Shown piece after piece: positions 691 through 34,882 of a stretch of 40,618 nucleotides of DNA. Every line of letters starts with the position of its first letter. Within the stretch, counting starts at the first letter, position 1. Under the pieces are notes generated by a model. That model had not been told where the DNA came from, did not search any database, and saw nothing but the letters and a program-made list of their open reading frames with translations. Origin of the DNA: an uncultured Gemmatimonadota bacterium (GTDB lineage: Bacteria > GCA-2686955); NCBI GenBank assembly GCA_964490075.1, contig CAZBBK010000011.1:62001-102618 (forward strand), given 5' to 3'. Both the position numbers and the translations under genes were made by a program.

Positions 691-723
691 TTCGGCTCTT
701 TTGTTTGACGCGGGCGAGCCGAA
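691..723. promoter_or_regulatory. Inverted repeat straddling the -35 element (candidate operator)
   Basis: TTCGGCTC (691-698)-N17-GAGCCGAA (716-723), perfect 8-bp arms. Confidence 0.5.
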
Positions 724-733
724 TCCCTAAAAT
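705..733 (+). promoter_or_regulatory. Sigma70-type promoter for the regulator-dsrC-dsrMK operon
   Basis: TTGACG (705-710), 17-nt spacer, TAAAAT (728-733), about 60 nt upstream of ATG 795. Confidence 0.7.
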
Positions 734-794: not shown

Positions 795-1664
795 ATGGCT
801 CGAAAAGAGCGAGAGTGGCTGAGCACGGGGCAAGCAGCCGAGCTTTGCTCCGTGACCTCGGACACCGTCCTGAAGTGGATCCGCAAGGGCCACATCTCGG
901 GGATCCGCACCGCCGGCGGGCATCACCGAATTGCGCGCGCCGAAATCGAGGGACTGCTGCGCTCGCGCTCGGCCGCCGCCAGCACGCCGCAGCCGCCTCC
1001 CGTCGCCGGCCCTTCCTCCCCCCTGCGTTGCTGGGAGTATCTCGGCGGCACCAACGGCGTCCGCGAGGAGTGCACGCACTGCTCGATCTATCACGTGCGC
1101 GCCGGATGGTGCTTCGCGATGGCCGGGATGGGCCTCGACATCGACCATTCCCGCCAACTCTGTGCCAGCTCCTGCCAGGACTGCGTCTACTACCGGCGGG
1201 TCATGAACCTGCCGACCCAGGTGCTGCTGGTCTCACGCGACGACCAGCTCACCCAGTCGCTCTCCGAGGCCACGGTCGAGGGCCTCAGCCTGCGCGTGGC
1301 CGCCAGCGGCTACCAAGCATCCACCACGATTCAGAGCTTTCGTCCGGCGTTCGCGATCGTCGACGAAGCGCTGATCAGGTCCGGGGAAACCGACTTGCTG
1401 CGCCACCTGGCGCGCGACCCACGGCTGTCCGGCCTGAAGATCATCCTCGCGGTTCCGAAGGGACGGACGGAACGGAAGAGGGACCAGACGAGGCCGGAGT
1501 TCCTCGTCAGCAGCATCGAGAAGCCGTTCGAGCTCCGAGAGGTCCAGGAGATCATCGAACGCTTCCCGGTCGAGTCCTTGCAGGCGCCGGACGCCGAGAC
1601 GCCGGTCGCCCTGCATCCAGGAGGCAGTGCCGATGCCGAACCTACCCTCCGAGCCTCTGAATGA
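795..1664 (+). CDS. Excisionase/MerR-like HTH regulator with central Cys-rich domain and C-terminal receiver-like domain
   Basis: N-term WLSTGQAAELCSVTSDTVLKWIRKG..RTAGGHHRI (excisionase-type HTH); middle CWEY..CTHC..WCF..CASSCQDC; C-term VLLVSRDD..AIVDE..IEKPF receiver pattern. Confidence 0.8.
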   Translation: MARKEREWLSTGQAAELCSVTSDTVLKWIRKGHISGIRTAGGHHRIARAEIEGLLRSRSAAASTPQPPPVAGPSSPLRCWEYLGGTNGVREECTHCSIYHVRAGWCFAMAGMGLDIDHSRQLCASSCQDCVYYRRVMNLPTQVLLVSRDDQLTQSLSEATVEGLSLRVAASGYQASTTIQSFRPAFAIVDEALIRSGETDLLRHLARDPRLSGLKIILAVPKGRTERKRDQTRPEFLVSSIEKPFELREVQEIIERFPVESLQAPDAETPVALHPGGSADAEPTLRASE

Positions 1665-1950
1665 GGATCTGGACGCCGAAGGTTACTTGAAGGAGATGGC
1701 GAGCTGGACCCGCGCGCGGGCCGAGGAACTCGCCGAGGCCAACGATATCGGTCCCCTGACCGACCAGCACTGGCAAGTGATCGAGTTCGTCAAGGACTAC
1801 TACCAGACCTACGGCCGGGGCCCCGCCGTGGTCAGAATCGGCAAGGAGACCGGCCTCAGGGCCACCACGATCTGCGATCTCTTTCCCTGCGGCGTCGTGA
1901 AGGGCGCCTACCGTCTCGCGGGGCTGCCGCGCCCCCCGGGATGTGTCTGA
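1627..1950 (+). CDS. TusE/DsrC/DsvC-family sulfur relay protein (terminal Cys only)
   Basis: LDAEGYL..W..LTDQHWQVIEFVKDYY..LFP..AGLPRPPGCV; GGAGG RBS just upstream of GTG 1627/ATG 1633; overlaps regulator 3' end. Confidence 0.92.
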   Translation: MPMPNLPSEPLNEDLDAEGYLKEMASWTRARAEELAEANDIGPLTDQHWQVIEFVKDYYQTYGRGPAVVRIGKETGLRATTICDLFPCGVVKGAYRLAGLPRPPGCV

Positions 1951-2010
1951 GCCGGAGACGACTGTCGCAAGCGCGGCCAACTCGCATGCAGTGAACAAAG
2001 GAACGAGTGG

Positions 2011-2730
2011 ATGGAAGCCGTACGATTTCTGGTGGGAGCGATCCTCCCCTATCTGGCGCTCTTGGTGTTTGTATTCGGAATGGTGTATCGAATCAGGACC
2101 TGGCTCAAGCTACCCGCGCCGGCGATGACGCTGACCCCCGCACCGCCCACCGAGGGGGACAACAAGAGCAACGTCTTGATGGAGACGTTTTTTTTCAGGA
2201 GCCTTTTCAAGGGCGACCGTGGCTTGTGGCTGCTGGCCTGGGTGTTCCACGTGGTGCTGGCATTGATCTTCGTCGGCCATTTGCGTGTATTCACCAACAT
2301 CGACGCCCTGTTCATGGGACTGGGCATGAGCGAACAGGCGATCCAGGGCATGTCCAGCGGGGCCGGCGGAGCGGCGGGCATCATCATTTTGATCACCCTT
2401 GGCGTGCTGATCCTGAGACACGTGGCGATTCCCCGGGTGCGCGAGATCACCGGCTTCGCGGACTACGCGGCGCTGCTGCTGATCGTCGCGATCATCATCA
2501 CCGGCAATTCGATGCGCTTCGGTGCGGAGCACTTCAACTTGGCGCTCACCCACGAGTACTTCAAGAGCCTGGCGACATTCGGCAACATCATGGGCTCTCC
2601 AGCCCTGCGAAACTCGACCTTCCTGGTGCACATGCTGCTGGCGTTGCTGTTAGTCATGTTCATGCCCTTCAGCAAGATCCTCCACTTCGGTGGGATCTTC
2701 TTCACCCACCAAATGATCCGCAAGCACTAG
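2011..2730 (+). CDS. DsrM/NarI-like di-heme cytochrome b membrane subunit
   Basis: About 5 TM helices; His pairs WVFHVVLALIFVGH and LVHMLL..PFSKILH typical of the nitrate reductase gamma/DsrM family; directly upstream of a DsrK-like gene. Confidence 0.88.
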   Translation: MEAVRFLVGAILPYLALLVFVFGMVYRIRTWLKLPAPAMTLTPAPPTEGDNKSNVLMETFFFRSLFKGDRGLWLLAWVFHVVLALIFVGHLRVFTNIDALFMGLGMSEQAIQGMSSGAGGAAGIIILITLGVLILRHVAIPRVREITGFADYAALLLIVAIIITGNSMRFGAEHFNLALTHEYFKSLATFGNIMGSPALRNSTFLVHMLLALLLVMFMPFSKILHFGGIFFTHQMIRKH

Positions 2731-2745
2731 CAGGAACGGGAGAAC

Positions 2746-4080
2746 ATGATGACGGAGAACGACGTCAAGCAAAAGGTGGTGGACTCGATCAGAGCCATCG
2801 ACAAAGGCCCGCGGGCGATGCAGATGTACATGGAGATGTGTACCAAGTGCGGCACCTGTGCATCAGTCTGTCCGGTCTACTACGGCAAGGGCGAAAAGCG
2901 TTACAACCCGGCGGAGCGTACCGACCTGATCCGGCGCGTCTATCGCAAGTACAACAGTTTCGCCGGCAGGGTCTTCGGGCGTCTCGCGGGGGCCGAGGAC
3001 TTCGATCCGGCGGTGCTGGGTGAATGGTCCAAGATCTTCTACGAGTGCACCGGCTGCCGGCGCTGCGCCGTCTTCTGCCCCTTCGGCATCGATCACTCGG
3101 TGATCACCCGCAAGGGCCGGGCGATTCTGGACCAGACCGGATACACGCCGGAGACGATGAAGAAGGTGGTCGAGATCTCGCTAGAGACCGGCAACACCGA
3201 CGGTGCCTCCAAGCAGGCCTTCATGGCCGCCGTCGACTTCCTCGAGGAGGAGATGCAGGACGAGCACGACGTCGAGATCAAGATCCCGGTCGACGTGAAG
3301 GGCGCGGAGTACTTCTACGTGCCGCCCTCCGGCGACGTGCTGGTCAATCCCGAGGCCACCATGGGCGTGGCCAAGGTGTTCCACGTGCTGGGCATGGCCG
3401 ACAAGTGGACCATGAGCTCCAAGTGCTTCGATGGGGCGAACTACGGCCTGTTCACGGGCGACGATGCGGCGATGAAATCCGACAACAAGCTGTACGTGGA
3501 CGAGGCCAAAGCACTGGGCGCCAAGGTGCTGCTGATGGGCGAATGCGGCCATGCCCATCGCATCATGAAGATGATGATGGAAAAGGCCGGTTGGTGGGGC
3601 GAGCTGCCCTTCGAGGTGACCAACTGCATGCAGTGGACGGCGGAGCACATCGAGGCCGGCCGGCTGCAGTTCGACAAGAGCAAGAACCCGCAACGAGTGA
3701 CCTATCACGATCCCTGCAACTTCGGGCGCTCCTGCGACATCACCGAGGAGCCGCGGGCGATCCTGGAGGCGGCCTGCACCGACTTCCAGGACATGGCACC
3801 CAACCGCCACGAGAATTGGTGCTGCGGCGGAGGCGGAGGCCTGTCGGCGATGGACGACATCCACGACTTCCGGATGTCGATATCGGGGACCAAGAAGATG
3901 GAGCAGGTGCGCGACACCGAGGCCCGCTACGTGGCGACCGCGTGCTCGAACTGCAAGCGCCAGCTCACCCAGCTGATGGAGCACCACGAAGAGGAGATCG
4001 AGGTCGGCGGGGTGCACGACATGCTCTCGCGGGCCATCCTGGTGAACGGAAAGGCGGCGGTGCGGCAGGACTTCACCTGA
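2746..4080 (+). CDS. DsrK/HdrD-like (Fe-S)-binding oxidoreductase with CCG domain
   Basis: Two ferredoxin motifs CTKCGTCASVCP and CTGCRRCAVFCP; ECGHA; YHDPCNFGR; CCGGGGG; ACSNC. Confidence 0.9.
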   Translation: MMTENDVKQKVVDSIRAIDKGPRAMQMYMEMCTKCGTCASVCPVYYGKGEKRYNPAERTDLIRRVYRKYNSFAGRVFGRLAGAEDFDPAVLGEWSKIFYECTGCRRCAVFCPFGIDHSVITRKGRAILDQTGYTPETMKKVVEISLETGNTDGASKQAFMAAVDFLEEEMQDEHDVEIKIPVDVKGAEYFYVPPSGDVLVNPEATMGVAKVFHVLGMADKWTMSSKCFDGANYGLFTGDDAAMKSDNKLYVDEAKALGAKVLLMGECGHAHRIMKMMMEKAGWWGELPFEVTNCMQWTAEHIEAGRLQFDKSKNPQRVTYHDPCNFGRSCDITEEPRAILEAACTDFQDMAPNRHENWCCGGGGGLSAMDDIHDFRMSISGTKKMEQVRDTEARYVATACSNCKRQLTQLMEHHEEEIEVGGVHDMLSRAILVNGKAAVRQDFT

Positions 4081-4190
4081 TCGGGCGGCGCCTGATACTC
4101 TGAAAGAGAGCCGCGGCGCGACGTCGGGCAGGTCCATGTAGGGCACGCCCCGCTTCAGGGGCGAGCCCCCACCTTTCCGGAGTCGACACC

Positions 4191-4853
4191 ATGACCGACG
4201 CGCCCGCGGAGAAAGTGGCGTTCGGGGGCCATATCTACACTCTCGACCACTATGGATTCCTCGATCCGCCAGAGCAGTGGAACGAAGCGTTCGCGGAAGG
4301 AATGGCGCGCACGCTGGGGATCGAAGGCGGGCTGAGCGCCCGCCACTGGGAGATCGTCCATTATCTGCGCCACAAGTTCCTGGACGAGAGCACCGTCCCG
4401 GTGCTGGTCGAGGCCGCCGCCGACAACCGGATGCGACTCTCCGAGCTCAAACGACTCTTCCCCACCGGCTACCATCGCGGGGCGTGCAAGATCGCCGGTA
4501 TCAACCAACGCTTCATGTTCGAGACCAACTACTGGTTGACCTACGAGACCGCGCCGCCGCCGAAGCCCCGTTTCGAGCTCGACCCGATGGGTTTCCTGAA
4601 GAGCGCCGACGCCTGGGACGAGGACTTCGCCGAGCTCGCCCTGGCACAGCTGGAGCCGCCCCTGGCCCTGACCGAGCGCCACTGGCAGGTGATCCGGTAT
4701 CTGCGCGACTTCTACGGCGAAAACCACACCATTCCGACCATCTACCAGACCTGCAGCGCGTGCGATCTCGATCTCGACGAGTTGCGCACGCTCTTTCCGG
4801 CCGGCTACCGGCGCTGCGCCTGCCGCGCCGCGGGGCTGCCCTTCCACGGTTGA
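4191..4853 (+). CDS. Tandem two-domain TusE/DsrC-family protein
   Basis: Two copies of LDxxGFL..W..HWxxxxYLR..LFPxGY..AC..AG (LFPTGYHRGACKIAGI and LFPAGYRRCACRAAGLP); GGAG RBS. Confidence 0.88.
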   Translation: MTDAPAEKVAFGGHIYTLDHYGFLDPPEQWNEAFAEGMARTLGIEGGLSARHWEIVHYLRHKFLDESTVPVLVEAAADNRMRLSELKRLFPTGYHRGACKIAGINQRFMFETNYWLTYETAPPPKPRFELDPMGFLKSADAWDEDFAELALAQLEPPLALTERHWQVIRYLRDFYGENHTIPTIYQTCSACDLDLDELRTLFPAGYRRCACRAAGLPFHG

Positions 4854-9288: not shown

Positions 9289-9354
9289 GATGCCGCCTAT
9301 GTCCCCGTGCGGCGCGCCACCGAGCGCGCCGCCCCCGCCCCGCAGGAGAAGACC

Positions 9355-11190
9355 GTGAGCAAGCTCGCCATCCGCCTCAGCTCGATCGCCTGGGCCGCCG
9401 CCGCGGCAGCAGCCGGCTGGTCGGTCGGCCTGGAGCGTGTGCTGCCGGCGACTTTCGGTGCGGGTGGGCGATCGACCGGCGGCGGCGATCCGGGCGAGTT
9501 CGCACTGGCCACAGCGGTCGCGCTCTTGCTGGCCCCGCTGCTGCTGCCCCCCCTGCTGGCGCGCCGCGATCGAACGCCGCCCCCAGGCGCCCCAACCCAG
9601 GCCCCGCTGGCGGCCGCCGCGGTCGCGTGGTGGGTGTTCGCCGCCGGCCAGGTCTGGGTGAAGAACCATCCCCTGGTCGATCGCGCCCGCAGCATCGAGG
9701 GGCTCGGTCTGGAGCTGAGCGTGCTGGTGCGCGCCGCCGGTCTCGGCGCCTGCGTGGGCGTGCTGGTATACTTTCTGGTCGTCCGCGTGCGAATCGGGCG
9801 CCTGCTGCGTCCCCGCGCCCTCCTGGTCGTGCTTCTGTTGCTGGCACTGCTCGGCGCCTGGACCCTGCACGGCCGCACCACCACCTCCCAGGCCCGGGCG
9901 CTGGCCACCTACCGCGAAGCCACGCCGCGCGCCGACTACAACGTGCTCCTGGTCACCCTCGACACCCAGCGCGCCGACTACCTGGGCTGTTACGGGGCCG
10001 AGGTCTCGACCCCCCATATCGACGCCCTGGCGCGCGCCGGCGCCCAGTTCGACCGCGCCTACAGCACCACCAACGTCACCATGCCCTCGCACGCCACCAT
10101 CCTGACCGCGCGCTGGATGAAAGAGCACGGCATGGAATCGAACTTCTCCCCGCCCCTCTCCGCGTCGAACCTGACCCTGCCCGAGATCCTGCACGAGATC
10201 GGCTACGCCACCGGCGCCTTCACCAGCCTCTTCATCCTCGACGGCGGCTACTCGGGATTGATGCAAGGCGTCGATACATGGTGGGCACCGGAGCGGGGCT
10301 TCACCGCGTCGGAAGAGGCCTTCACGCGCGCCGCCGTGTGGCTGGAGTCGGTCGCCGACCGGCGCTTCTTCGCCTGGGTCCACAGCTACGACGTGCATCG
10401 TCCCTACGAGCCCGTGCCGCCCTACGACACGCTCTACTACCAGGACGTGCCCGACGACCCGGACAACCTCTCGTTCACGCGCATCCCCAGCTTCCATCCG
10501 CGTCCCTTCGGTGTCACCGACATCGACTACCTGCCGGCGATGTACAAGGGCGAGACCAGCTACCAGGACGAGCAGCTGGGTGTTCTCTTCGCGCGCATGA
10601 AGGAGCTGGGGATCTTCGACAACACCCTGATCGTGCTCACCGCGGATCACGGCGAGAGCCTGGGCGAGCACGATCTCTTCTACAGCCACGACGCCCTCTA
10701 CGAGGAAGACGTGCGGGTGCCCTTGATCCTCCACGCGCCAGACCTGGTGCCGGCCGGGCTCCGCTCCGGCGCCCTGGTGCAGACCATCGACCTGGTGCCG
10801 ACGGTGCTCGAGCTACTCGGCCTGCCGCCTCTCGAGCTGGCCTCCGGCACCAGCCTGGCGCCGCTGCTCTCCGACCCAGCGGCGCAAGTGCGCAGCCACG
10901 CTTTTCTGGAAGGCAAGAGCTACCGCGCGCTGGGCATCGTCGACTCGACCTGGGCCTTCATCCACCCGCTGAAGGATATGGTACCCAACCACAACGTCGA
11001 GCTCTTCCGCATCGCCGACGATCCGCAGCAACTGCGCAACCTCTTCTACAGCGAGCGTCCGGTCGCGGAGCGGTATCTCGACCTGGCCCAGGAGTTCAGC
11101 GGACGGCGCATCCGGCTCGGCAAGGCCGCCAAGAGCGGCGTCCGGCCGACCGTCAGCCAGCAGCTCAACGCCTTGGGCTACGTCCAGTAG
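9355..11190 (+). CDS. Membrane-anchored sulfatase-like hydrolase/transferase (alkaline phosphatase superfamily)
   Basis: N-terminal TM helices then [44 protein letters not shown]; start chosen at GTG 9355 behind GGAG (ORF open from 9307). Confidence 0.85.
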
Positions 11191-13962: not shown

Positions 13963-14033
13963 CGTGCCCCTGCCCTGCCCCGCCCCTGTCATTGCCCGAT
14001 TCCCGCCGCCGGACCTGGCAGGGCACGGGCACG
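13963..14033. repeat. Long intergenic inverted repeat (REP-like stem-loop)
   Basis: CGTGCCCCTGCCCTGCC (13963-13979) pairs with GGCAGGGCACGGGCACG (14017-14033) at 16/17 positions, 37-nt loop. Confidence 0.65.
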
Positions 14034-14203
14034 CGGCGGTCCCGCGCTCGGGTGGCGCCCGCCCCGCCTCACGCACCAATACTGGCGAGATTCAGCAGCG
14101 CACCGACCATGTACAGAAGAGAACCAAGTTATGCTGGTGGCTGCAACTTCCTCTTCCCGTGTCGAGCCCGCCCCGCCGAACCCCTCCGCACAAGCGTAAT
14201 CCC

Positions 14204-16147
14204 ATGACATCAAAGCACTTGTTCTGCACACTCGCGAGCCTCGCGCTGGCCGCGCCCGGCCGCGGCGCAAGCACCCCGAGCAGTGCTCCCCCGCCCACCG
14301 GGCAGATCGAGAGCGCGCCCCTGTTCCAGCTTCCCGACGGCCTGCGCAAGTACAACGTGCTGATCTGGGCCCTCGACACCACCCGCGCCGACCATTTCGG
14401 CATCTACGGCTACCACCGCGACACCACCCCCTTCATCGACCAGCTCGCCGAGCTCGGCCTGCGCTGGGACAACTACACCACCTCGTCGACCTGGACCTGG
14501 CCCAGCGTGGTCAGCATGATGAGCAGCCTCACCGTCCCGACCCACAAGACCCTGGCCTCGTCGCTGGCGATGCCGCGCGGCTGGGCCAGCTTTCCCGAGA
14601 TCCTCGAGCCCTTCGGGTACCAAAGCGTTCTGGTCTCCAGCAACCACCTGCTCACCGACCTGGGGCGCCAGCTCTCCGACCGTTTCGATGTCTCCGTGGC
14701 CACCCTGCGACCGGACGAAACCCTGACCGACGTGGTGATCGACGCCATTCGCGATCCCGCTGGCCGCCCCTTCTTCATCCACGCCCAACCGGTGGCCGGT
14801 CATGCCCCCTACGTCTGCCCGCCGCCCTTCGACTCGCTCTTCGTCGACGATGCCTTCTACGGCGGACTGGGCGATCTGCCGAAGATCAACGACTCGGAGA
14901 ACTGCGACGGCGGGATGCAGCGCTCGGTGGTCATCGATTCCATCCTCTCCATGGACTGGTACGTGGCCCAGTACGACGGCCTGATGGCCTACATGGACTA
15001 CCAGTTCAGCCGGATCTACGAGGCCATCGAGGACGAAGGCCTGATCGACTCGACCCTGATCGTCATCACCGCCGATCATGCCGAAAACCTCGCCGGCGAT
15101 CACAACTACTATTTCTGCCACACCGACCAGTACCAGTCGAACATCCGCCTGCCTTTCATCGTTCTGCTGCCCGAAGAGGTGCAAGAGGCGCGCGGACCGC
15201 TGCGCAACCTGGCGCTCGGCGGGCTGCCCAACCACATCGATCTCCTGCCGACCGTCCTCGACCTGCTCGGCGTCGAGACTCCGGCCCAGGCCCAAGGGCG
15301 CAGCCTGATCGAGCTTCCGCAACCCGATCGGCGCATCGGACACAACCACCTGGGCCGCTCCTACCAGGAAGGCAACTGGAAGGTCGTGCAGAAGAACGAA
15401 AAGGTCGAGCCGGGGCCGGATACCGGGCTCTACGACATCGCCGCCGACCCCGACGAGCAGAACGACCTCTCCGGACCGATGACGGCGCTGCGCGACTCGC
15501 TGGAGGCGATCATGCTCGGCATCACCCTCCAGCTCGAGGCGATCCAGCCCCCCTTCTACCCCACCGGCGACCTCTACCACAGCGATCTCAACGACCCCGC
15601 GGAGACCGACGAGTTCTTCTACGTGAGCGGCAAGATGCGCCTGGTGGAGGACTACGGCTGGGGCTTCATCTACGAAGACCCCGACAGCAACCGGGTGATG
15701 TACGGCCAGTCGCCGCCCGGCGAGCCGGAGAATCTGCGCATGCCGGGCTCGCTGATCGAGGAGATCCTGCCCGACTACAACCTCTCGTTGCGCATGCAGC
15801 TGAACGAGGGCATCGGCTACCTGGGGCTCTCGGCGTTGGGCAAGTTCTTCTACAGCAACTTCGAGTTCCGCCCCGGATACCTGGTCACGATCGAGCCGGA
15901 CTCGATCGGTCTGGGGAGCTACCTGCCCGATGGTGAAAATGTCGACGCGGGGCGGGTCGCCTACCCCTTCGGCCTCGACGCCTGGCAGGAGATCGTGGTG
16001 ACCAACGACGGCGACACCGTGACCGTCAACATCGGCGGCCGCGATCTCTTGAGCATTCCGACCCACCAAGGCATCGCCGGAGCGACCTACTTCGGCCTCG
16101 CGATGGGCTCGGAGATGCGCGTCGACGATATCCGCGTCTGGCGCTAA
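14204..16147 (+). CDS. Secreted sulfatase-like hydrolase with C-terminal beta-rich (lectin/ConA-like) domain
   Basis: Signal-like MTSKHLFCTLASLALAA; NVLIWALDTTRADH, WTWPSVVSMMS, GHAPY, TADHAE, LYDIAADPDE; ORF open from 13964 but ATG 14204 gives the signal peptide. Confidence 0.82.
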   Translation: MTSKHLFCTLASLALAAPGRGASTPSSAPPPTGQIESAPLFQLPDGLRKYNVLIWALDTTRADHFGIYGYHRDTTPFIDQLAELGLRWDNYTTSSTWTWPSVVSMMSSLTVPTHKTLASSLAMPRGWASFPEILEPFGYQSVLVSSNHLLTDLGRQLSDRFDVSVATLRPDETLTDVVIDAIRDPAGRPFFIHAQPVAGHAPYVCPPPFDSLFVDDAFYGGLGDLPKINDSENCDGGMQRSVVIDSILSMDWYVAQYDGLMAYMDYQFSRIYEAIEDEGLIDSTLIVITADHAENLAGDHNYYFCHTDQYQSNIRLPFIVLLPEEVQEARGPLRNLALGGLPNHIDLLPTVLDLLGVETPAQAQGRSLIELPQPDRRIGHNHLGRSYQEGNWKVVQKNEKVEPGPDTGLYDIAADPDEQNDLSGPMTALRDSLEAIMLGITLQLEAIQPPFYPTGDLYHSDLNDPAETDEFFYVSGKMRLVEDYGWGFIYEDPDSNRVMYGQSPPGEPENLRMPGSLIEEILPDYNLSLRMQLNEGIGYLGLSALGKFFYSNFEFRPGYLVTIEPDSIGLGSYLPDGENVDAGRVAYPFGLDAWQEIVVTNDGDTVTVNIGGRDLLSIPTHQGIAGATYFGLAMGSEMRVDDIRVWR

Positions 16148-20885: not shown

Positions 20886-23800
20886 ATGGAACGCCCCATC
20901 CTTTGGATTCTCGCCGCGCTCTTCTGTGGCGCGCCGGCGGCGCCGGCGGCCCCTTTCGATCACGACGACCTGAGGTCGGGAGACGCGACCTGGCGGCGCA
21001 AGGGGGTCCACAGCGGCAACAAAGTGCGCACGGTCTTCTACAACTTCGGGCTGGTGGCGAATCTGAACGAGATCTCCGGCGAATGGCCGATCGGCACCGG
21101 CAACTACTACATCGGCGACGTGACTCCAGTGGTCGGTGTGGAGTACGTCAACGCCCTCGGCGACACAGTCCACTCCGTGGTCACCTGCGACGGCCCGCGC
21201 GGCAACTCCGACGGCCCCGGCGGCGGCGTCTTCTGGGGCTTGGAGCCGATCCCGGACTTCCTCAACGAAGCCCAGGACGGGGTGGCAATGAGCCATCTGC
21301 CGGGCACCTGGCCCGCCCACTGGCCCGACCGGGCCGGCTCCTGGGACGGCTTCTGGAACGGATTCTTCGGGCGCGGGGTCCAAAACGCCGACCAGGAATC
21401 GTTCTTCTACATGGACGACGCCGCCGACGCCGAGTTCAATTCCGCCGACGACGGCACCACGCTCTGGCTGCCCGATCCGTCTCAGCCGGAGCGCGATGGC
21501 CTCGGGTTGGTGATGCGGGTGCGCGGCTTCCAGTGGTCCCATTTCCTCGCCGAGGACGTGATCTTCTGGCTCTATGAGGTCACCAACATCTCGGTCCACG
21601 ACTACGACCGGGTCGCCTTCGGCATGGTGGTCGGCACCCTCTCCGGCGGCCGCGACGACGCCAACGACGATCTGGCCTTCTTCGATCTCGAAGACGACAT
21701 CACCTACTCCTGGGACTTCGACGATATCGGCAGCCCCGGCTGGGTGCCGGTCTCCGAGACCATCAACGTCGGCTACGTGGGCTACGCTTTTCTCGAATCC
21801 CCCGGCAACCCCTTCAACGGCATCGACGACGATGGAGACGGAGAAGAGGGCAGCCCCTTGATCGACCGCGGCATGCTCTCCGGCGAGATCACCGGCAACG
21901 GCATCGACGACAACGAAAATGGCTTGATCGACGAAGGCGAGCAGCACATCGGCCTGGGCTACGCCGACGGGGTCGACAACGACGCCGACGGCGACACCGA
22001 CGAGATGATCGACGAACGCCGCGACGACGGGATCGACAACGATTCCGACTGGGATCCCTTGCTGCACGACACCGGCGCCGATGGCGTGGCCGGCACCGGA
22101 GACGAGGGCGAGGGCGACGGCATCCCCACCGCCGGCGAGCGCAACTTCGACGCCACCGACGTCGACGAATCGGACCAGATCGGACTGACCAGCTTCGACT
22201 ACTTCGCGCCATCGAACGTGGTCAAGATGAACGACGACGAAGGCCTCTGGGAGCGCCTCGAGCCGGGGCGTTTCGACGTCGTTCCCGGGCGCCCCGAGGA
22301 CGGCGACTTCATCTACGGTTCCGGGCTCTTCCCGCTGAAGTCGGGCCAGACCCAGCGCTTCTCCATGGCCCTGGTGTTCGGCGAGGATTTCGAGGATATC
22401 GTCGAGAACAAGCGCACCGCTCAGAAGATCTACGACGACAATTACAACTTCGCCCGCCCGCCGGCCAATCCCACCGTCTGGGCGGCGGCCGATTCCGGAA
22501 AGGTGACGCTCTACTGGAACGGCGAGGATTCGGAAAACAGCTTCGACGACGTGCTCGGCTACGACTTCGAAGGCTACAAGATCTACAAGTCGACCGAGCC
22601 CTTCTTCAACGAGAGCTTCACCATCACCGACGCCAAGGGCCGCAAGACCTTCAACGATCCGCTGGCGCAGTTCGACAAGGTCGACGGCAAGTTCGGCTTC
22701 TTCGAGGTGCCGATCGAAGGGCGCGGCATTCAGTTCTTCCTCGGCAACGAGAGCGGACTGCGGTACACCTACGAAGATACCGACGTCACCAACGGCCGCA
22801 CCTACTACTACGCGGTGGTCGCCTACGACCACGGCAGCGTCGACAAGAACATGCAGCCGGCCGAGAACACCAAGTCGATCACCGAGCTGGAGAGTGGGGT
22901 CTTCATTTTCGACGACAACACAGTGGCGGCGACGCCCGGAGTGCGCGCCGGCGGCTATCGAGGTCCGCAGGTGGGCGACTGGCAGCATGAGGGAGGGGCA
23001 ACGGGCTCGCTGGCCGTCGAGGTGGTCGATCCGACACAAGTCCTCGATCGTCGCTACCAGATCAGCTTCCAGGACAGCACTTACTGGAGCGGCGACACGC
23101 TTTTCGCGCGAGCCACCACTTCCTACTCGGTGCGTGATCTGGACACCGATTCTCTGGTGGTCGATTCCTCGCCGAAGGTCCAGGGCGGACCCAGCGACGA
23201 TTTTTTCGCCGGAATGCGCGTGGTGCTCGACAACCAGACCCGGATCGAGGTGATCGACTCGCTCTCGCAGTGGAGTGGAGCCGCGGCGGCGACCTACGAG
23301 GTTTCACTCCGGGTCTTCAACTTCCGGCGGACTCAGGGCCACGAGTGGCCGGGGGTCTACGAGCTGCGCGTCACGGACCAGATCAGCGGCCGCTCGACTT
23401 ACTTCGAGATCGACGACATCATCGGCACCATCCCGGTTCCGGAGCAGGACACCCGTTTCGATGTCGTGGCGACGACGGCGGGGCTCGAGCAGCCGGTGGA
23501 GTTCGCGTTCTGGGAGCCGACCAACCCGGACGGCGCGCTTTCGCCGGGGGATCAGATCATCCTGCTGCAGACCGATCCGGACGATTCGGAGACCACGCTG
23601 GCGACCTGGGCGATGGTGATCGAAGAGGGCGGCGGCGAGCCGCCCGGCGACGGTGCGCGCTACACCGCCACCACAACGGTCCCCTTCCGCGGCGGCGCCG
23701 ACGGCGATCTTTTCGAGTTCAGCGCCCTGCCGGCGAGCGCCTCCGGCGGCCCGGACAGCAGCTACGACATGGCGCGGATCAAGGTGGTGCCGAACCCCTA

Positions 23801-24086
23801 CGTGGCCGGCAACGCGCTGGAGCCGCGCCAGCTTTTCTCCAACGAGCGCGGCGAGCGGCGGCTGCTCTTCACCCACCTGCCGCCGCGCGCCACGATCCGG
23901 GTCTACACCCTGCGCGGCGAGCTGGTCGACACCATCAAGCACGACGGAGGCGATGCGCTCGACGGCACGGCGACCTGGGATCTGCGCTCCCGGGACAACC
24001 TGGAGATCGCCTACGGCGTCTACCTCTACCACGTCGACGCGCCGGGCTACGGCGTGCAATCCGGGAAGTTCGCGGTGATCAAATGA
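20886..24086 (+). CDS. Large secreted hypothetical protein with acidic Ca-binding-like repeats, FN3-like domain and T9SS/FlgD-like C-terminal domain
   Basis: Signal peptide; NGIDDDGDG-type repeats; VTLYW..FEGYKIYKS..TYYYAVVAYD; C-term IKVVPNPY..IRVYTLRGELV..WDL..GVYLYHV..GKFAVIK. Confidence 0.8.
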   Translation: MERPILWILAALFCGAPAAPAAPFDHDDLRSGDATWRRKGVHSGNKVRTVFYNFGLVANLNEISGEWPIGTGNYYIGDVTPVVGVEYVNALGDTVHSVVTCDGPRGNSDGPGGGVFWGLEPIPDFLNEAQDGVAMSHLPGTWPAHWPDRAGSWDGFWNGFFGRGVQNADQESFFYMDDAADAEFNSADDGTTLWLPDPSQPERDGLGLVMRVRGFQWSHFLAEDVIFWLYEVTNISVHDYDRVAFGMVVGTLSGGRDDANDDLAFFDLEDDITYSWDFDDIGSPGWVPVSETINVGYVGYAFLESPGNPFNGIDDDGDGEEGSPLIDRGMLSGEITGNGIDDNENGLIDEGEQHIGLGYADGVDNDADGDTDEMIDERRDDGIDNDSDWDPLLHDTGADGVAGTGDEGEGDGIPTAGERNFDATDVDESDQIGLTSFDYFAPSNVVKMNDDEGLWERLEPGRFDVVPGRPEDGDFIYGSGLFPLKSGQTQRFSMALVFGEDFEDIVENKRTAQKIYDDNYNFARPPANPTVWAAADSGKVTLYWNGEDSENSFDDVLGYDFEGYKIYKSTEPFFNESFTITDAKGRKTFNDPLAQFDKVDGKFGFFEVPIEGRGIQFFLGNESGLRYTYEDTDVTNGRTYYYAVVAYDHGSVDKNMQPAENTKSITELESGVFIFDDNTVAATPGVRAGGYRGPQVGDWQHEGGATGSLAVEVVDPTQVLDRRYQISFQDSTYWSGDTLFARATTSYSVRDLDTDSLVVDSSPKVQGGPSDDFFAGMRVVLDNQTRIEVIDSLSQWSGAAAATYEVSLRVFNFRRTQGHEWPGVYELRVTDQISGRSTYFEIDDIIGTIPVPEQDTRFDVVATTAGLEQPVEFAFWEPTNPDGALSPGDQIILLQTDPDDSETTLATWAMVIEEGGGEPPGDGARYTATTTVPFRGGADGDLFEFSALPASASGGPDSSYDMARIKVVPNPYVAGNALEPRQLFSNERGERRLLFTHLPPRATIRVYTLRGELVDTIKHDGGDALDGTATWDLRSRDNLEIAYGVYLYHVDAPGYGVQSGKFAVIK

Positions 24087-27543: not shown

Positions 27544-28155
27544 TCAGCCGACGAAGCCGCGGTCCTTCAGATAGTCGATCACCTTCTCGACCGATTCGGC
27601 AATGCTGAGCTCGCCGGTGTCGATGTGGATCTCGGCGTGCTCCGGTGCTTCGTAGGGGGCGCTGACACCGGTGAACTCGGGGATCTCACCGGCGCGGGCC
27701 TTCTTGTAGAGCCCCTTCGGGTCGCGCGCCTCGCAGATCTCGAGCGTCGGGCAGGCGTAGATCTCGACGAAAGAAGCGCCGGCGATCTCGCGCGCCAGCC
27801 GCCGCTCGCGCCGGTAGGGGCTGATGAAGGCGGTGGTGACGATGCAGCCGGAGTCGGCGAAGAGGTTCGCGACCTCGCCGATGCGGCGGATGTTCTCGAC
27901 CCGATCGTCGGGAGAGAAGCCCAGATCGCGGTTCAGGCCGTGGCGGATGTTGTCGCCATCGAGCACGTATGTGTGGACTCCGTCGACGTGCAGACGTGCC
28001 GACACGGCGTTCGCCAGGGTCGACTTCCCCGATCCCGACAGACCGGTGAACCAGAGGACCGCCCCGCGGTGGTGATTCAGCTCCTCGCGCATCTCGCGGT
28101 CCACGGATGCCGCCTGCCAGGTCACGTTGGTGCTCTTGTGATCGGTGTTGCTCAA
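27544..28155 (-). CDS. cysC: Adenylyl-sulfate (APS) kinase
   Basis: WFTGLSGSGKST, LDGDNIRHGL, ENIRRIGEVA, RDPKGLYKKARAGEIPEFTGVSAPYE; TTG 28155 behind GGAG (ORF open to 28227). Confidence 0.95.
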   Translation of the reverse strand: MSNTDHKSTNVTWQAASVDREMREELNHHRGAVLWFTGLSGSGKSTLANAVSARLHVDGVHTYVLDGDNIRHGLNRDLGFSPDDRVENIRRIGEVANLFADSGCIVTTAFISPYRRERRLAREIAGASFVEIYACPTLEICEARDPKGLYKKARAGEIPEFTGVSAPYEAPEHAEIHIDTGELSIAESVEKVIDYLKDRGFVG

Positions 28156-28213
28156 GGCTGTCTCCAGGGGAAGGGCCCGTCCGAGGCTCGATGGGTGGGT
28201 TTCGCGATCAGGG

Positions 28214-28241
28214 GTGAAAATCGGCAAACCCTTACTATAAT
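28214..28241 (+). promoter_or_regulatory. Sigma70-type promoter for the enoyl-CoA hydratase operon
   Basis: GTGAAA (28214-28219)-N16-TATAAT (28236-28241) in the divergent intergenic region. Confidence 0.55.
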
Positions 28242-33305: not shown

Positions 33306-33436
33306 CGGCCGCTCCAGTGTTCCACCTCTTACAGCATCCCATCGGTCCCTTTGGAGAAAAGCGCCAGCTGTTCAGAAAACGAACACGATCGTGCGCGGCA
33401 CTGGATATTCGGGCGGCGTCGCAGCAAGCTTCGCCG

Positions 33437-34882
33437 ATGCCACTCAAACGCTTGGATGGATGGCTCTGGGCGCTGTTGAGCGCAGCCGGCGGCGGCGCGG
33501 CGTGGGCCTTCGCGGCCTTCCCGCGTGATGACGCGTTGATCACCTACCGCTACGCGCTGCGCCTGTCTCAGGGGCTGGGCTTCAGCTACCAGGAGGGTGC
33601 CGCGGTGTGCGGCAGCTCCACGCCGCTGTGGACGCTGCTGCTGGCGCTCGGCGCCCGCCTCGGGGCCCCGCCGGCGCTTGCCGCTCCGGCCCTCGGAGCT
33701 CTCTGTCACGCCCTCGCAGTGCCCCTCCTGGTGCGCCTGGGCGCGCGGCTGGGCCGGCGCCGCGGCGGCTGGATCGCGGCCTCGATGTACGCCCTCTGCC
33801 CTCCGGTAGTGGCGATCGCCGGCTCCGGGATGGAGAGCGCCGCCGCCACCCTGGCGCTGCTGGCGACGCTGACCTGCGCCCTCGAAGGGCGCGCGCTGCT
33901 GGGCGGCGCCTGCATGGGGATCGCACTGTTGCTGAGGCTCGACCTGGCCCTCTTCGCCCTGCTGCTGCTGCTCTGGTGGCGCGTGAGCCACCGGCGCTGG
34001 CCGTGGCCGGCGCTGGCGGCCGCGGTGGCCGTGCAGCTGCCCTGGTGGATCTACGCGCAGGCGACCTTCGGATCGATCGTCCCCCACAGCGTAAACGCCA
34101 AGCTGGTCTTCTACTCCGCGAGCGAATGGCCGCGTCCCGCGGCCACCCTCGACTGGTTCGCCGGCGACCCGGCGCGGATCGTGCTGAGCCTCTCGGCCCT
34201 CCTCGGCGCCTGGGTCGCTAGCCGCTCCCGGCGCGGCGCCTGGCTGATCGCCGCCTGGCCGCTGGCCCAGTTCCTCTCCTACGACCTGGCCGGGACCCTG
34301 GTGCACGAGTGGTACCGCACCCCCCCCTACCCGGTGTTCTTCCTCTTCGCCGCCCTCGGCGGCGCGCTGCTGATCGACCGGGTCGCCGGCGGCCGCGCCC
34401 GGGCGGCCGCCTCCGTCGCGCGGATCGGCGCGCTGCTGCTCCTTGCCGCCGGCGCCGCGCGCCTGCCCGCGACCTGGTCGCTCTGGGATCGATCCACCGC
34501 GCGCATGCGCGGCGCCCACGGCGAGGTCGCCGCCTGGCTGCGCGCCCACGCCGCTCCCGACCACCGGGTGGCCTGCGGAGACATCGGCCTGATCGGCCTC
34601 GAATGCGGCGCCCGCATCCTCGACACCGTCGGCCTGGTCTCGCCCGAGGTGGTGCCCTACAACCGCCGTCGCGACTTCCTCGGCATCTACACCGAGCTGC
34701 GCCCCGAGTGGGCCGTGATCGGCACTTACGGTCCCCTCTTCTCCGCCATCATCGAGGCTCCGTCCTTTCGCGCGCTCTACCGCGAAGAGGCGCGCTTCGC
34801 CTACACCGAAGAGATCGACTACGTCGTCTACCGGCTCCTGCCACCATCTCAGAGCCGAAAGTCGGCCAGCACCGGCGCGTGA
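33437..34882 (+). CDS. Polytopic membrane protein, GT-C-type glycosyltransferase-like
   Basis: RDDALITYRYA..G.GF..GSSTPLWTLLLA, SGMES, RLD, DIGLIG..LDTVGLVSP with many TM helices; start uncertain (ORF open from 33317). Confidence 0.72.
   Translation: MPLKRLDGWLWALLSAAGGGAAWAFAAFPRDDALITYRYALRLSQGLGFSYQEGAAVCGSSTPLWTLLLALGARLGAPPALAAPALGALCHALAVPLLVRLGARLGRRRGGWIAASMYALCPPVVAIAGSGMESAAATLALLATLTCALEGRALLGGACMGIALLLRLDLALFALLLLLWWRVSHRRWPWPALAAAVAVQLPWWIYAQATFGSIVPHSVNAKLVFYSASEWPRPAATLDWFAGDPARIVLSLSALLGAWVASRSRRGAWLIAAWPLAQFLSYDLAGTLVHEWYRTPPYPVFFLFAALGGALLIDRVAGGRARAAASVARIGALLLLAAGAARLPATWSLWDRSTARMRGAHGEVAAWLRAHAAPDHRVACGDIGLIGLECGARILDTVGLVSPEVVPYNRRRDFLGIYTELRPEWAVIGTYGPLFSAIIEAPSFRALYREEARFAYTEEIDYVVYRLLPPSQSRKSASTGA

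Follow-up and report, generated by a model that had tools for sequence, protein, structure and literature searches.

The 40,618-nucleotide stretch of DNA considered here (the window: positions 62,001 to 102,618 of contig CAZBBK010000011.1, assembly GCA_964490075.1, from an uncultured bacterium) carries near its left end a cassette of five genes, all on the forward strand, whose products resemble DsrC, DsrM and DsrK of the Dsr system. The first gene (795-1664) encodes a regulator of 289 amino acids (aa) recognised by the Pfam families HTH_17 (39.8 bits) and MerR (28.2 bits). It is followed by a DsrC/TusE protein, termed DsrC1 (1627-1950; 107 aa; PF04358, 92 bits), by a DsrM-like cytochrome b of the NarI family (2011-2730; 239 aa; PF02665, Nitrate_red_gam, 72.7 bits), by a DsrK-like subunit with Fer4 and CCG domains (2746-4080; 444 aa) and by an armless protein composed of two DsrC domains, termed tandem DsrC (4191-4853; 220 aa; two PF04358 stretches). 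In 5' to 3' order the genes are separated by a 38-nt overlap and then by gaps of 60, 15 and 110 nt, a spacing that is compatible with a single operon.

A sigma-70-like promoter predicted from its match to the consensus (TTGACG-17-TAAAAT, 705..733, forward strand, 10 of 12 positions) precedes the regulator gene and is the sole such site between positions 400 and 5200, where shuffled sequence yields a mean of 0.4. Its -35 hexamer is flanked by a perfect inverted repeat on the same strand (691..723, TTCGGCTC-N17-GAGCCGAA) with 8-nt arms that are 100 % complementary and that constitute a candidate operator. Many of the other loci described below have long-spacer inverted repeats upstream of their regulator homologues; their arm sequences differ, and no operator sequence common to the loci emerged when these upstream regions were compared. 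Searching the genome with the palindrome, allowing at most one mismatch per arm, gave 25 matches, of which only the one at its own site is exact. The cassette sequence agrees with contigs from four DNA runs of one study. A tblastn search of the window found no homologue of DsrA, DsrB, DsrL, DsrN, DsrO, DsrP, AprAB, Sat or QmoAB. The preliminary description of the locus as five co-oriented genes behind one clear promoter, with neither dsrAB nor dsrJOP in the window, is therefore confirmed by the open reading frames (ORFs), their spacing, the promoter and this search.

Redox subunits, DsrC domains and regulator

The cytochrome b subunit retains the four invariant histidines (H80, H90, H207 and H225) that serve as haem ligands in NarI-type proteins, yet it scores only 95.2 bits against the NCBIfam DsrM model NF038037, for which the cut-off is 300, and it is 31 % identical to the canonical DsrM encoded elsewhere in the same genome. 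The DsrK-like subunit (hereafter K) behaves similarly. It is 33.5 % identical to the canonical DsrK of the genome and reaches 352.2 bits with NF045796, below the cut-off of 400, compared with 204 bits for each of the TmcB and HmcF models. According to PMC10861901, the hallmarks of DsrK are a pair of ferredoxin-type [4Fe-4S] motifs, a single CCG motif and the cysteine of a GECGH sequence, the latter being discussed there as a DsrK signature. The complete set is found in K and is invariant in 38 homologues: the ferredoxin motifs CxxCxxCxxxC at C32/35/38/42 and C101/104/107/111, the CCG motif as C324...C359C360...C400xxC403, and GECGH at residues 265-269 with C267. Column identity in K averages 78 % across phyla.

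A tree of 94 K sequences comprised 48 of the cassette type, 21 canonical ones and two further paralogue groups, K3 and K4, with 16 and 9 members, respectively; hits too low in identity or coverage, such as a partial canonical K of genome G004, and hits interrupted by stop codons were left out. Every group is recovered with support of 99-100 in the Shimodaira-Hasegawa-like approximate likelihood ratio test (SH-aLRT), with 99 for the cassette K and 100 for the canonical K. The cassette K forms a sister clade to canonical K against K3 and K4 (SH-aLRT 95) and does not nest inside the DsrK that is encoded with dsrJOP, dsrC and dsrAB. Named TmcB, HmcF and HdrD sequences do not figure among the rows, and the relation to these proteins is given by the scores of the hidden Markov models only.

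None of the three DsrC domains carries the Cys-X10-Cys arm, as had been noticed from the sequence at the outset. DsrC1 ends in ...GAYRLAGLPRPPGCV, a C-terminal arm that holds CysA (C106) and has tyrosine at the position of CysB; this position is tyrosine or phenylalanine in 47/47 homologues. Its other invariant cysteines, C83 and C88, are additional to the arm, Cys88 being specific to the family. In tandem DsrC, both domains lack the arm together with CysA and keep only a CysB-equivalent, C99 and C211; both residues are invariant among the homologues and align to CysB of solved DsrC structures. A functional DsrC is recognised by a C-terminal arm on which ten residues separate CysA from CysB, or by the DiSCo motif AGLPKPTG(not N)C (PMC8477390), in which a single mismatch is tolerated. 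The corresponding DsrC1 sequence, AGLPRPPGC, has two mismatches and the tandem domains have no arm, which places neither protein among the DsrAB substrates by this definition. Nor do they qualify as TusE, since DsrC1 (56 bits) and tandem DsrC (82 bits) stay well below the cut-off of 191 of the TusE model NF008562. Within its own length class, tandem DsrC has 623 database clusters at E<=0.001; among the 120 clusters listed, most are about 215 aa long and 57-71 % identical. Position 76 is cysteine in 60/61 homologues and alanine solely in the window copy, which also has an unusual C209. Two further runs yielded contigs with exactly the same sequence around A76.

Structure modelling supports binding of tandem DsrC to K via its first domain and the linker. 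The modelled pair scored 0.69 (0.68, 0.71 and 0.69 in individual runs), the best of three controls being 0.00. The score mark applied is reached by 58/80 solved complexes and by 2/110 mismatched pairs, counts that hold only roughly because our own alignments were used. At least 84 % of the contacts are common to the runs, and the predicted local distance difference test (pLDDT) of the partner is at least 83. On tandem DsrC the predicted contacts involve residues 20-21, 71-77, 82-84, 96, 106, 110 and 113-123, a surface that includes position 76; on K they involve residues 137-172, 195-202, 368-373, 401-422 and 440-441, close to the CCG motif. The consensus sequences of cassette and canonical K agree at 9/39 interface positions and at 149/405 positions elsewhere, a modest difference. 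A sequence search of solved structures with K returned only 9ojn_A and no DsrK-DsrC complex for comparison; it is therefore less likely that the score reflects a memorised complex.

The regulator combines a BldC/MerR-like helix-turn-helix (HTH) domain, a region with seven invariant cysteines (C79, C93, C96, C106, C123, C127 and C130 in an alignment of 22 homologues) and a receiver-like domain. By both score and fold the HTH is of the MerR/excisionase type (HTH_17, BldC-like): the HTH_17 score exceeds the cut-off of 27 bits, TIGR01764 gives 42.6 bits, and Foldseek aligns the domain to BldC (6ama_P) with a TMt of 0.86. In the AlphaFold2 (AF2) model the HTH has a pLDDT of 94-96 and the receiver-like residues 141-255 one of 90-97, the values in the cysteine region being low. 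Foldseek pairs the receiver-like domain with the receivers of MtrA, CheY and DivK (probability 1.00, TMt about 0.7), and D190 and P244, the latter within KPF, are invariant in the homologue alignment; Pfam Response_reg gave no match to the protein at E<=0.01. The nearest Atlas clusters are hypothetical proteins with HTH_17 and MerR, followed by HTH_17 plus Response_reg proteins.

In seven loci the regulator and DsrC1 form one open frame, an architecture that Pfam confirms as HTH_17+MerR+DsrC in locus L034. The same architecture accounts for 41/50 DsrC1-related proteins longer than 188 aa, which measure 371-416 aa and come from gene calls of several sources. Three longer relatives of tandem DsrC were found: an Rrf2+2xDsrC protein, a 6TM_PilS+HisKA+HATPase_c+2xDsrC protein and a protein with four DsrC domains. 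The last of these (P0121) has 511 aa, and two tandem DsrC genes lie adjacent to each other in L094 and L100. Separate Rrf2 genes occur directly 3' of K in at least nine loci, mostly immediately before tandem DsrC. On the K tree the loci with a regulator-DsrC1 fusion are not gathered in a single tight clade, and their common ancestor covers 17 rows, unfused ones included.

The canonical Dsr set and the spread of the cassette

The preliminary description considered the operon to be self-contained and independent of DsrAB. A profile search of the whole genome argues otherwise. The window belongs to contig C11 of a 5.7-Mb genome (136 contigs, 95 % complete), and another contig, C8, encodes a full canonical set that had been missed: dsrA (578.6 bits, cut-off 392.85) and dsrB (500.1 bits, cut-off 341.5), DsrM, DsrK, DsrO and DsrP (484, 735, 308 and 446 bits, all above the curated cut-offs), a dsrJ-like frame rich in CxxCH between dsrK and dsrO, a DsrL-like flavoprotein, a DsrN-like amidase, aprBA-, qmo- and sat-like ORFs, and a canonical two-cysteine DsrC that ends in ...ACKVAGLPKPTGCV with Cys-X10-Cys. 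A third DsrC, with a single cysteine, is encoded on contig C19. DsrH (PF04077) was detected neither in this genome nor in any of the 45 cassette genomes surveyed below, while the control genomes gave matches; DsrD (PF08679) had no match in the genome, nor in any control genome. DsrL-like genes are present in 48/52 genomes tested, including cassette-free ones, and DsrL was rejected as a discriminator of cassette carriers since dsrA-positive genomes without the cassette possess it just as often. Between dsrB and the dsrL-like gene of C8, the usual position of dsrD, lies an ORF of 80 aa (G000:C8:54879-55121, i.e., L006:16879-17121, minus strand) that matches no Pfam family even at E<=1; a similar ORF of 86 aa is found at the start of L031, upstream of the dsrL-like gene.

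Relatives of the cassette were located with peptide patterns derived from an alignment of tandem DsrC, using one genome per species; 148 places were confirmed and 80 loci kept. They come from about ten mostly uncultured phyla, among them Gemmatimonadota, Zixibacteria, Latescibacterota, Planctomycetota, Myxococcota, Elusimicrobiota, Calditrichota and Acidobacteriota, and also from Desulfobacterota-type lineages; among the loci kept, the closest homologues are from Gemmatimonadota. A cassette-type K (at least 55 % identity) shares the locus with tandem DsrC in 46/80 cases. It is upstream on the same strand, the arrangement of the window, in 24 loci, 16 of which also have the regulator, DsrC1 and M above the thresholds; the gene order proposed for the window is thus conserved in other genomes. 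Elsewhere K is upstream and divergent (14 loci), downstream on the same strand (6 loci) or downstream on the opposite strand (2 loci). A further 25 loci show no K, the flank being short on one side or both, three contain no full-length tandem match by the thresholds used, and six are devoid of K despite at least 5 kb on both sides, four of these six encoding distant tandem DsrCs with 36-42 % identity. In the divergent form (Gemmatimonadota and L091), a K-M-C1-regulator block faces a second regulator paralogue followed by tandem DsrC. In one planctomycete locus (L088 3061-8720) DsrO-like and DsrP-like genes lie between M and K.

In several Gemmatimonadota the cassette adjoins the dsr genes themselves and so lies within the dsr cluster. 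Loci L022, L023, L027, L028 and L031 share the order dsrL-dsrN-[K-M-C1-reg]<->[reg2-tandem DsrC]-K3REC...M4K4, and the contig coordinates of G044 and G041 place dsrAB just upstream of this cassette. It is followed by a cytochrome-b-like gene, an HmcF/TmcB-like receiver fusion, a PAS kinase and a response regulator, then by a MerR-like gene and another M-K pair; these downstream genes are homologous to genes on C8 of the window's genome. The C8 counterpart of the fusion is a HmcF/TmcB-like CCG protein joined to a response-regulator receiver domain (G000:C8:69986-71749, i.e., L007:11986-13749). Its homologues, 63-79 % identical, adjoin the cassette in loci from Gemmatimonadota, Elusimicrobiota, Planctomycetota and others, and in L031 the gene stands after a 222-aa membrane protein and before the PAS kinase and response regulator.

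The association with dsrAB is tight. From the 80 loci, 45 other genomes were picked for showing cassette-type M or K genes, and dsrA exceeds its curated cut-off in 43 of them, the misses being G069 (2.6 Mb) and G082. All 21 cassette genomes tested encode a canonical DsrK that is 64-86 % identical to the C8 copy. In an even sample of 301 Gemmatimonadota, seven have dsrA; tandem DsrC (E<=1e-30) occurs in two of these seven and was not found in any of the 294 genomes that lack a dsrA match. One more dsrA-positive member of the phylum (G097) encodes a K of 62 % identity and, where a contig ends, part of a tandem DsrC. The cassette thus co-occurs near-obligately with dsrA. The reverse does not hold. 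The phylum of the window's genome has five species genomes in the collection, three with dsrA, and in two dsrA-positive ones (G001 and G004) the cassette was not found. Being restricted to Dsr organisms, yet not required by them, the cassette is therefore accessory to Dsr.

The two remaining genomes of the phylum, both 84 % complete and with no dsrA found, contain pieces of the cassette. In G003, the regulator, DsrC1, M and K lie on a short contig of 3.2 kb (G003:C540, L101/L019), on which the match to K shifts frame near residues 52-82, owing either to a true frameshift or to a fault in the assembly. G002, a member of the same family, retains no more of tandem DsrC than its final ~45 codons, about 70 % identical (L018, i.e., G002:C118 1498-1698). 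The remnant sits between a cytochrome b gene and an SNF2 helicase gene, the same neighbours as in the window's genome, so that judging from the sequence the rest of the cassette is deleted, with the split cytochrome b pair flanking the deletion. Taken together with the G002 deletion and the G003 frame change, the alanine at position 76 may point to altered use or relaxed constraint in the lineage of the window.

Other genes around the cassette can be described briefly. Upstream, two adjacent ORFs of 275 aa (G000:C11:60874-62569, of which 3-569 falls in the window) resemble a split cytochrome b, with an N-terminal part and a part like subunit IV; this assignment comes from reading the sequence, and the piece in the window matches no Pfam or NCBIfam family. 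Farther along are two sulfatase-family proteins and one APS kinase (9307-11190, 13964-16147 and 27544-28227). Two ORFs (20886-24086, 1066 aa, and 33317-34882, 521 aa) have high GC at third codon positions and no Pfam match at E<=1e-5.

Possible roles of the cassette

We favour, with a probability of roughly one half, a reading in which the operon is accessory to the Dsr system and acts as a thiol or sulfane switch that is coupled to quinone and informs the regulators of dissimilatory sulfur metabolism. It is favoured because the DsrMK machinery is kept while its partners are unable to form the CysA-CysB bridge and are repeatedly fused or adjacent to signalling proteins. Three features point to signalling: the DsrC1-regulator fusions, the fusions of tandem DsrC to Rrf2 or a histidine kinase, and the model of K with tandem DsrC. 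Gene content, motif conservation, the restriction to dsrAB-bearing genomes, the dsr linkage in relatives and the fusions are direct observations; what K acts on, which way electrons flow and that the output is regulatory are inferences.

In such a pathway the dihaem cytochrome b would exchange electrons with the menaquinone pool, and K, with its two [4Fe-4S] motifs, its CCG motif for a noncubane cluster and its GECGH cysteine, would perform thiol or di-/trisulfide chemistry. Its substrates would be the two dedicated DsrC-family proteins rather than canonical DsrC, and in the model the armless tandem DsrC docks on K close to the CCG region. The HTH/7-Cys/receiver-like regulator would then sense whether DsrC1 and tandem DsrC have changed in redox or sulfuration state, a task that would fall to Rrf2 or histidine-kinase partners in other lineages, such that the quinone pool and sulfur status tune the expression of genes for dissimilatory sulfur metabolism. 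More tentatively, and with somewhat less than even confidence, the DsrC domains may be regarded as protein thiol switches onto which a DsrMK-type enzyme writes quinone-pool redox or the DsrC-trisulfide load, to be read by the regulators.

Several points weigh against the switch. In four of the seven dsrA-positive Gemmatimonadota neither K nor tandem DsrC was found, and G001 and G004 likewise gave dsrA and no cassette; Dsr itself does not need it. The search with the promoter palindrome revealed no site at the dsrAB promoter and no target of the regulator. The fusion proteins are known from gene calls in uncultured metagenomes, and those with Rrf2 and the kinase are single clusters of one to three members. 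When a fusion protein was modelled with AF2 (predicted TM-score 0.53), its DsrC1 domain was merely tethered by a disordered linker, and no docked state is seen. The score of the K-tandem DsrC complex is the model's own confidence and not a measurement. The window copy of tandem DsrC may work differently or be decaying, because Cys76, a position within the modelled K interface, is absent. Finally, the slow evolution of K would be equally suited to a heavily used enzyme.

This last point leads to a purely catalytic role, in which the cassette would be a second terminal reductase, an isoenzyme of DsrMK(JOP) regenerating DsrC1 and tandem DsrC after their loading by DsrAB, with the regulator merely controlling the operon. 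The invariance of all catalytic motifs in M and K speaks for it, as do the extra dsrMK paralogues known in sulfate reducers from the accessible parts of PMC6018796, PMC8477390 and PMC10861901, the tie to dsrAB genomes and the DsrO- and DsrP-like genes between M and K in L088. However, a stoichiometric sulfur carrier that is fused to a transcription factor in most of its longer relatives is ill-suited to bulk turnover, tandem DsrC has no arm with which to reach the siroheme site, and both DsrC-like genes are accompanied by regulators in most lineages; on balance we consider this role rather unlikely. Still less probable is a relay working in the reverse direction, with the cassette DsrCs replacing DsrEFH to feed sulfane sulfur and K oxidising the persulfide to pass electrons to quinone. 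The failure to find DsrH, the prevalence of DsrL-like genes and the single, TusE-like CysA of DsrC1 would suit such a relay, but DsrL is not peculiar to cassette carriers, no gene for TusA, DsrE or a rhodanese occurs inside the cassette in the loci examined, and the regulator fusions are left unexplained.

As to the original proposal of a self-contained quinol:protein-disulfide/persulfide oxidoreductase that operates independently of DsrAB, one part stands: the sequence is compatible with a quinone-linked thiol/disulfide oxidoreductase of the DsrK/HdrD type whose substrates are DsrC-like proteins. The window without dsrAB and dsrJOP, the location of the cassette and the dsr cluster on different contigs, and the two cassette genomes with no dsrA match would agree with independence from DsrAB as well. 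Set against these are the complete canonical Dsr genes on C8, the near-obligate presence of dsrA and the dsr linkage in relatives, by which independence is largely refuted and appears very improbable.

Paralogues of dsrMK have been noted in sulfate reducers, in the accessible parts of the literature with neither partner nor role assigned, and the cassette supplies candidate partners, a CysB-less DsrC and a tandem DsrC with a modelled contact to K, together with a possible readout through regulators that are often fused to DsrC. If the signalling interpretation is true, it would show how sulfur and redox state are sensed by recently recognised carriers of dsrAB, among them Gemmatimonadota, Zixibacteria, Latescibacterota, Planctomycetota and Myxococcota; if the thiol switch is real, a signalling pathway would have been built from respiratory parts in about ten mostly uncultured phyla. 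For annotation, the cassette is a possible source of error in surveys that infer the core pathway from matches to 'dsrC' and 'dsrMK'. A literature search found no description of tandem DsrC or of the cassette, although supplementary tables of Dsr surveys may list such paralogues.

Relation to known Dsr and Hdr systems

The closest functional paradigm is the DsrMKJOP complex, in which, according to the accessible text of PMC10861901, electrons from menaquinol pass via the haems of DsrM to the noncubane cluster of DsrK and reduce the DsrC-trisulfide made by DsrAB. The cassette shares with DsrMK(JOP)-DsrC a NarI-type dihaem cytochrome b, a subunit with CCG, two ferredoxin and GECGH motifs, and an encoded partner of the DsrC family. 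It departs from the complex in that its K and M fall below the equivalog cut-offs, K forms a separate clade and J, O and P genes are lacking; moreover, its partners have no CysA/CysB pair, a dedicated regulator is present and the canonical complex is found in the same genome.

Additional dsrMK genes have been reported in several forms, to the extent that the accessible parts of the sources describe them: a dsrM2K2 pair upstream of dsrAB (PMC6018796), an alternative DsrMK type of DiSCo (PMC8477390), and the DsrK homologues AF0543, AF0544 and AF0547 of A. fulgidus (PMC10861901). Like these, the cassette is a second M-K pair beside DsrMKJOP in a dsrAB-bearing host and has kept the last cysteine of CCG. 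Its tandem DsrC without arms, its DsrC without CysB and its regulator, which can be fused, are mentioned neither in those parts of the sources nor in that of PMC10504309, which describes a basal clade with dsrMK only; the comparison is by description only.

With DsrC-family proteins that have one or no arm cysteine, for which a non-respiratory role has been proposed, the cassette pair has the DsrC fold in common. It differs from TusE in falling below the equivalog cut-off and in a genome where no TusBCD or DsrH was found, and its tandem DsrC differs from TusE-type proteins in having two domains with invariant CysB-equivalents. Finally, HdrDE of methanogens, as presented in the accessible text of PMC10861901, likewise couples a membrane cytochrome b to a CCG subunit, where quinol-type electrons serve to reduce a disulfide. 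HdrD, compared here by description, acts on a small molecule by means of two noncubane clusters; the cassette has one CCG motif and proteins as its partners.

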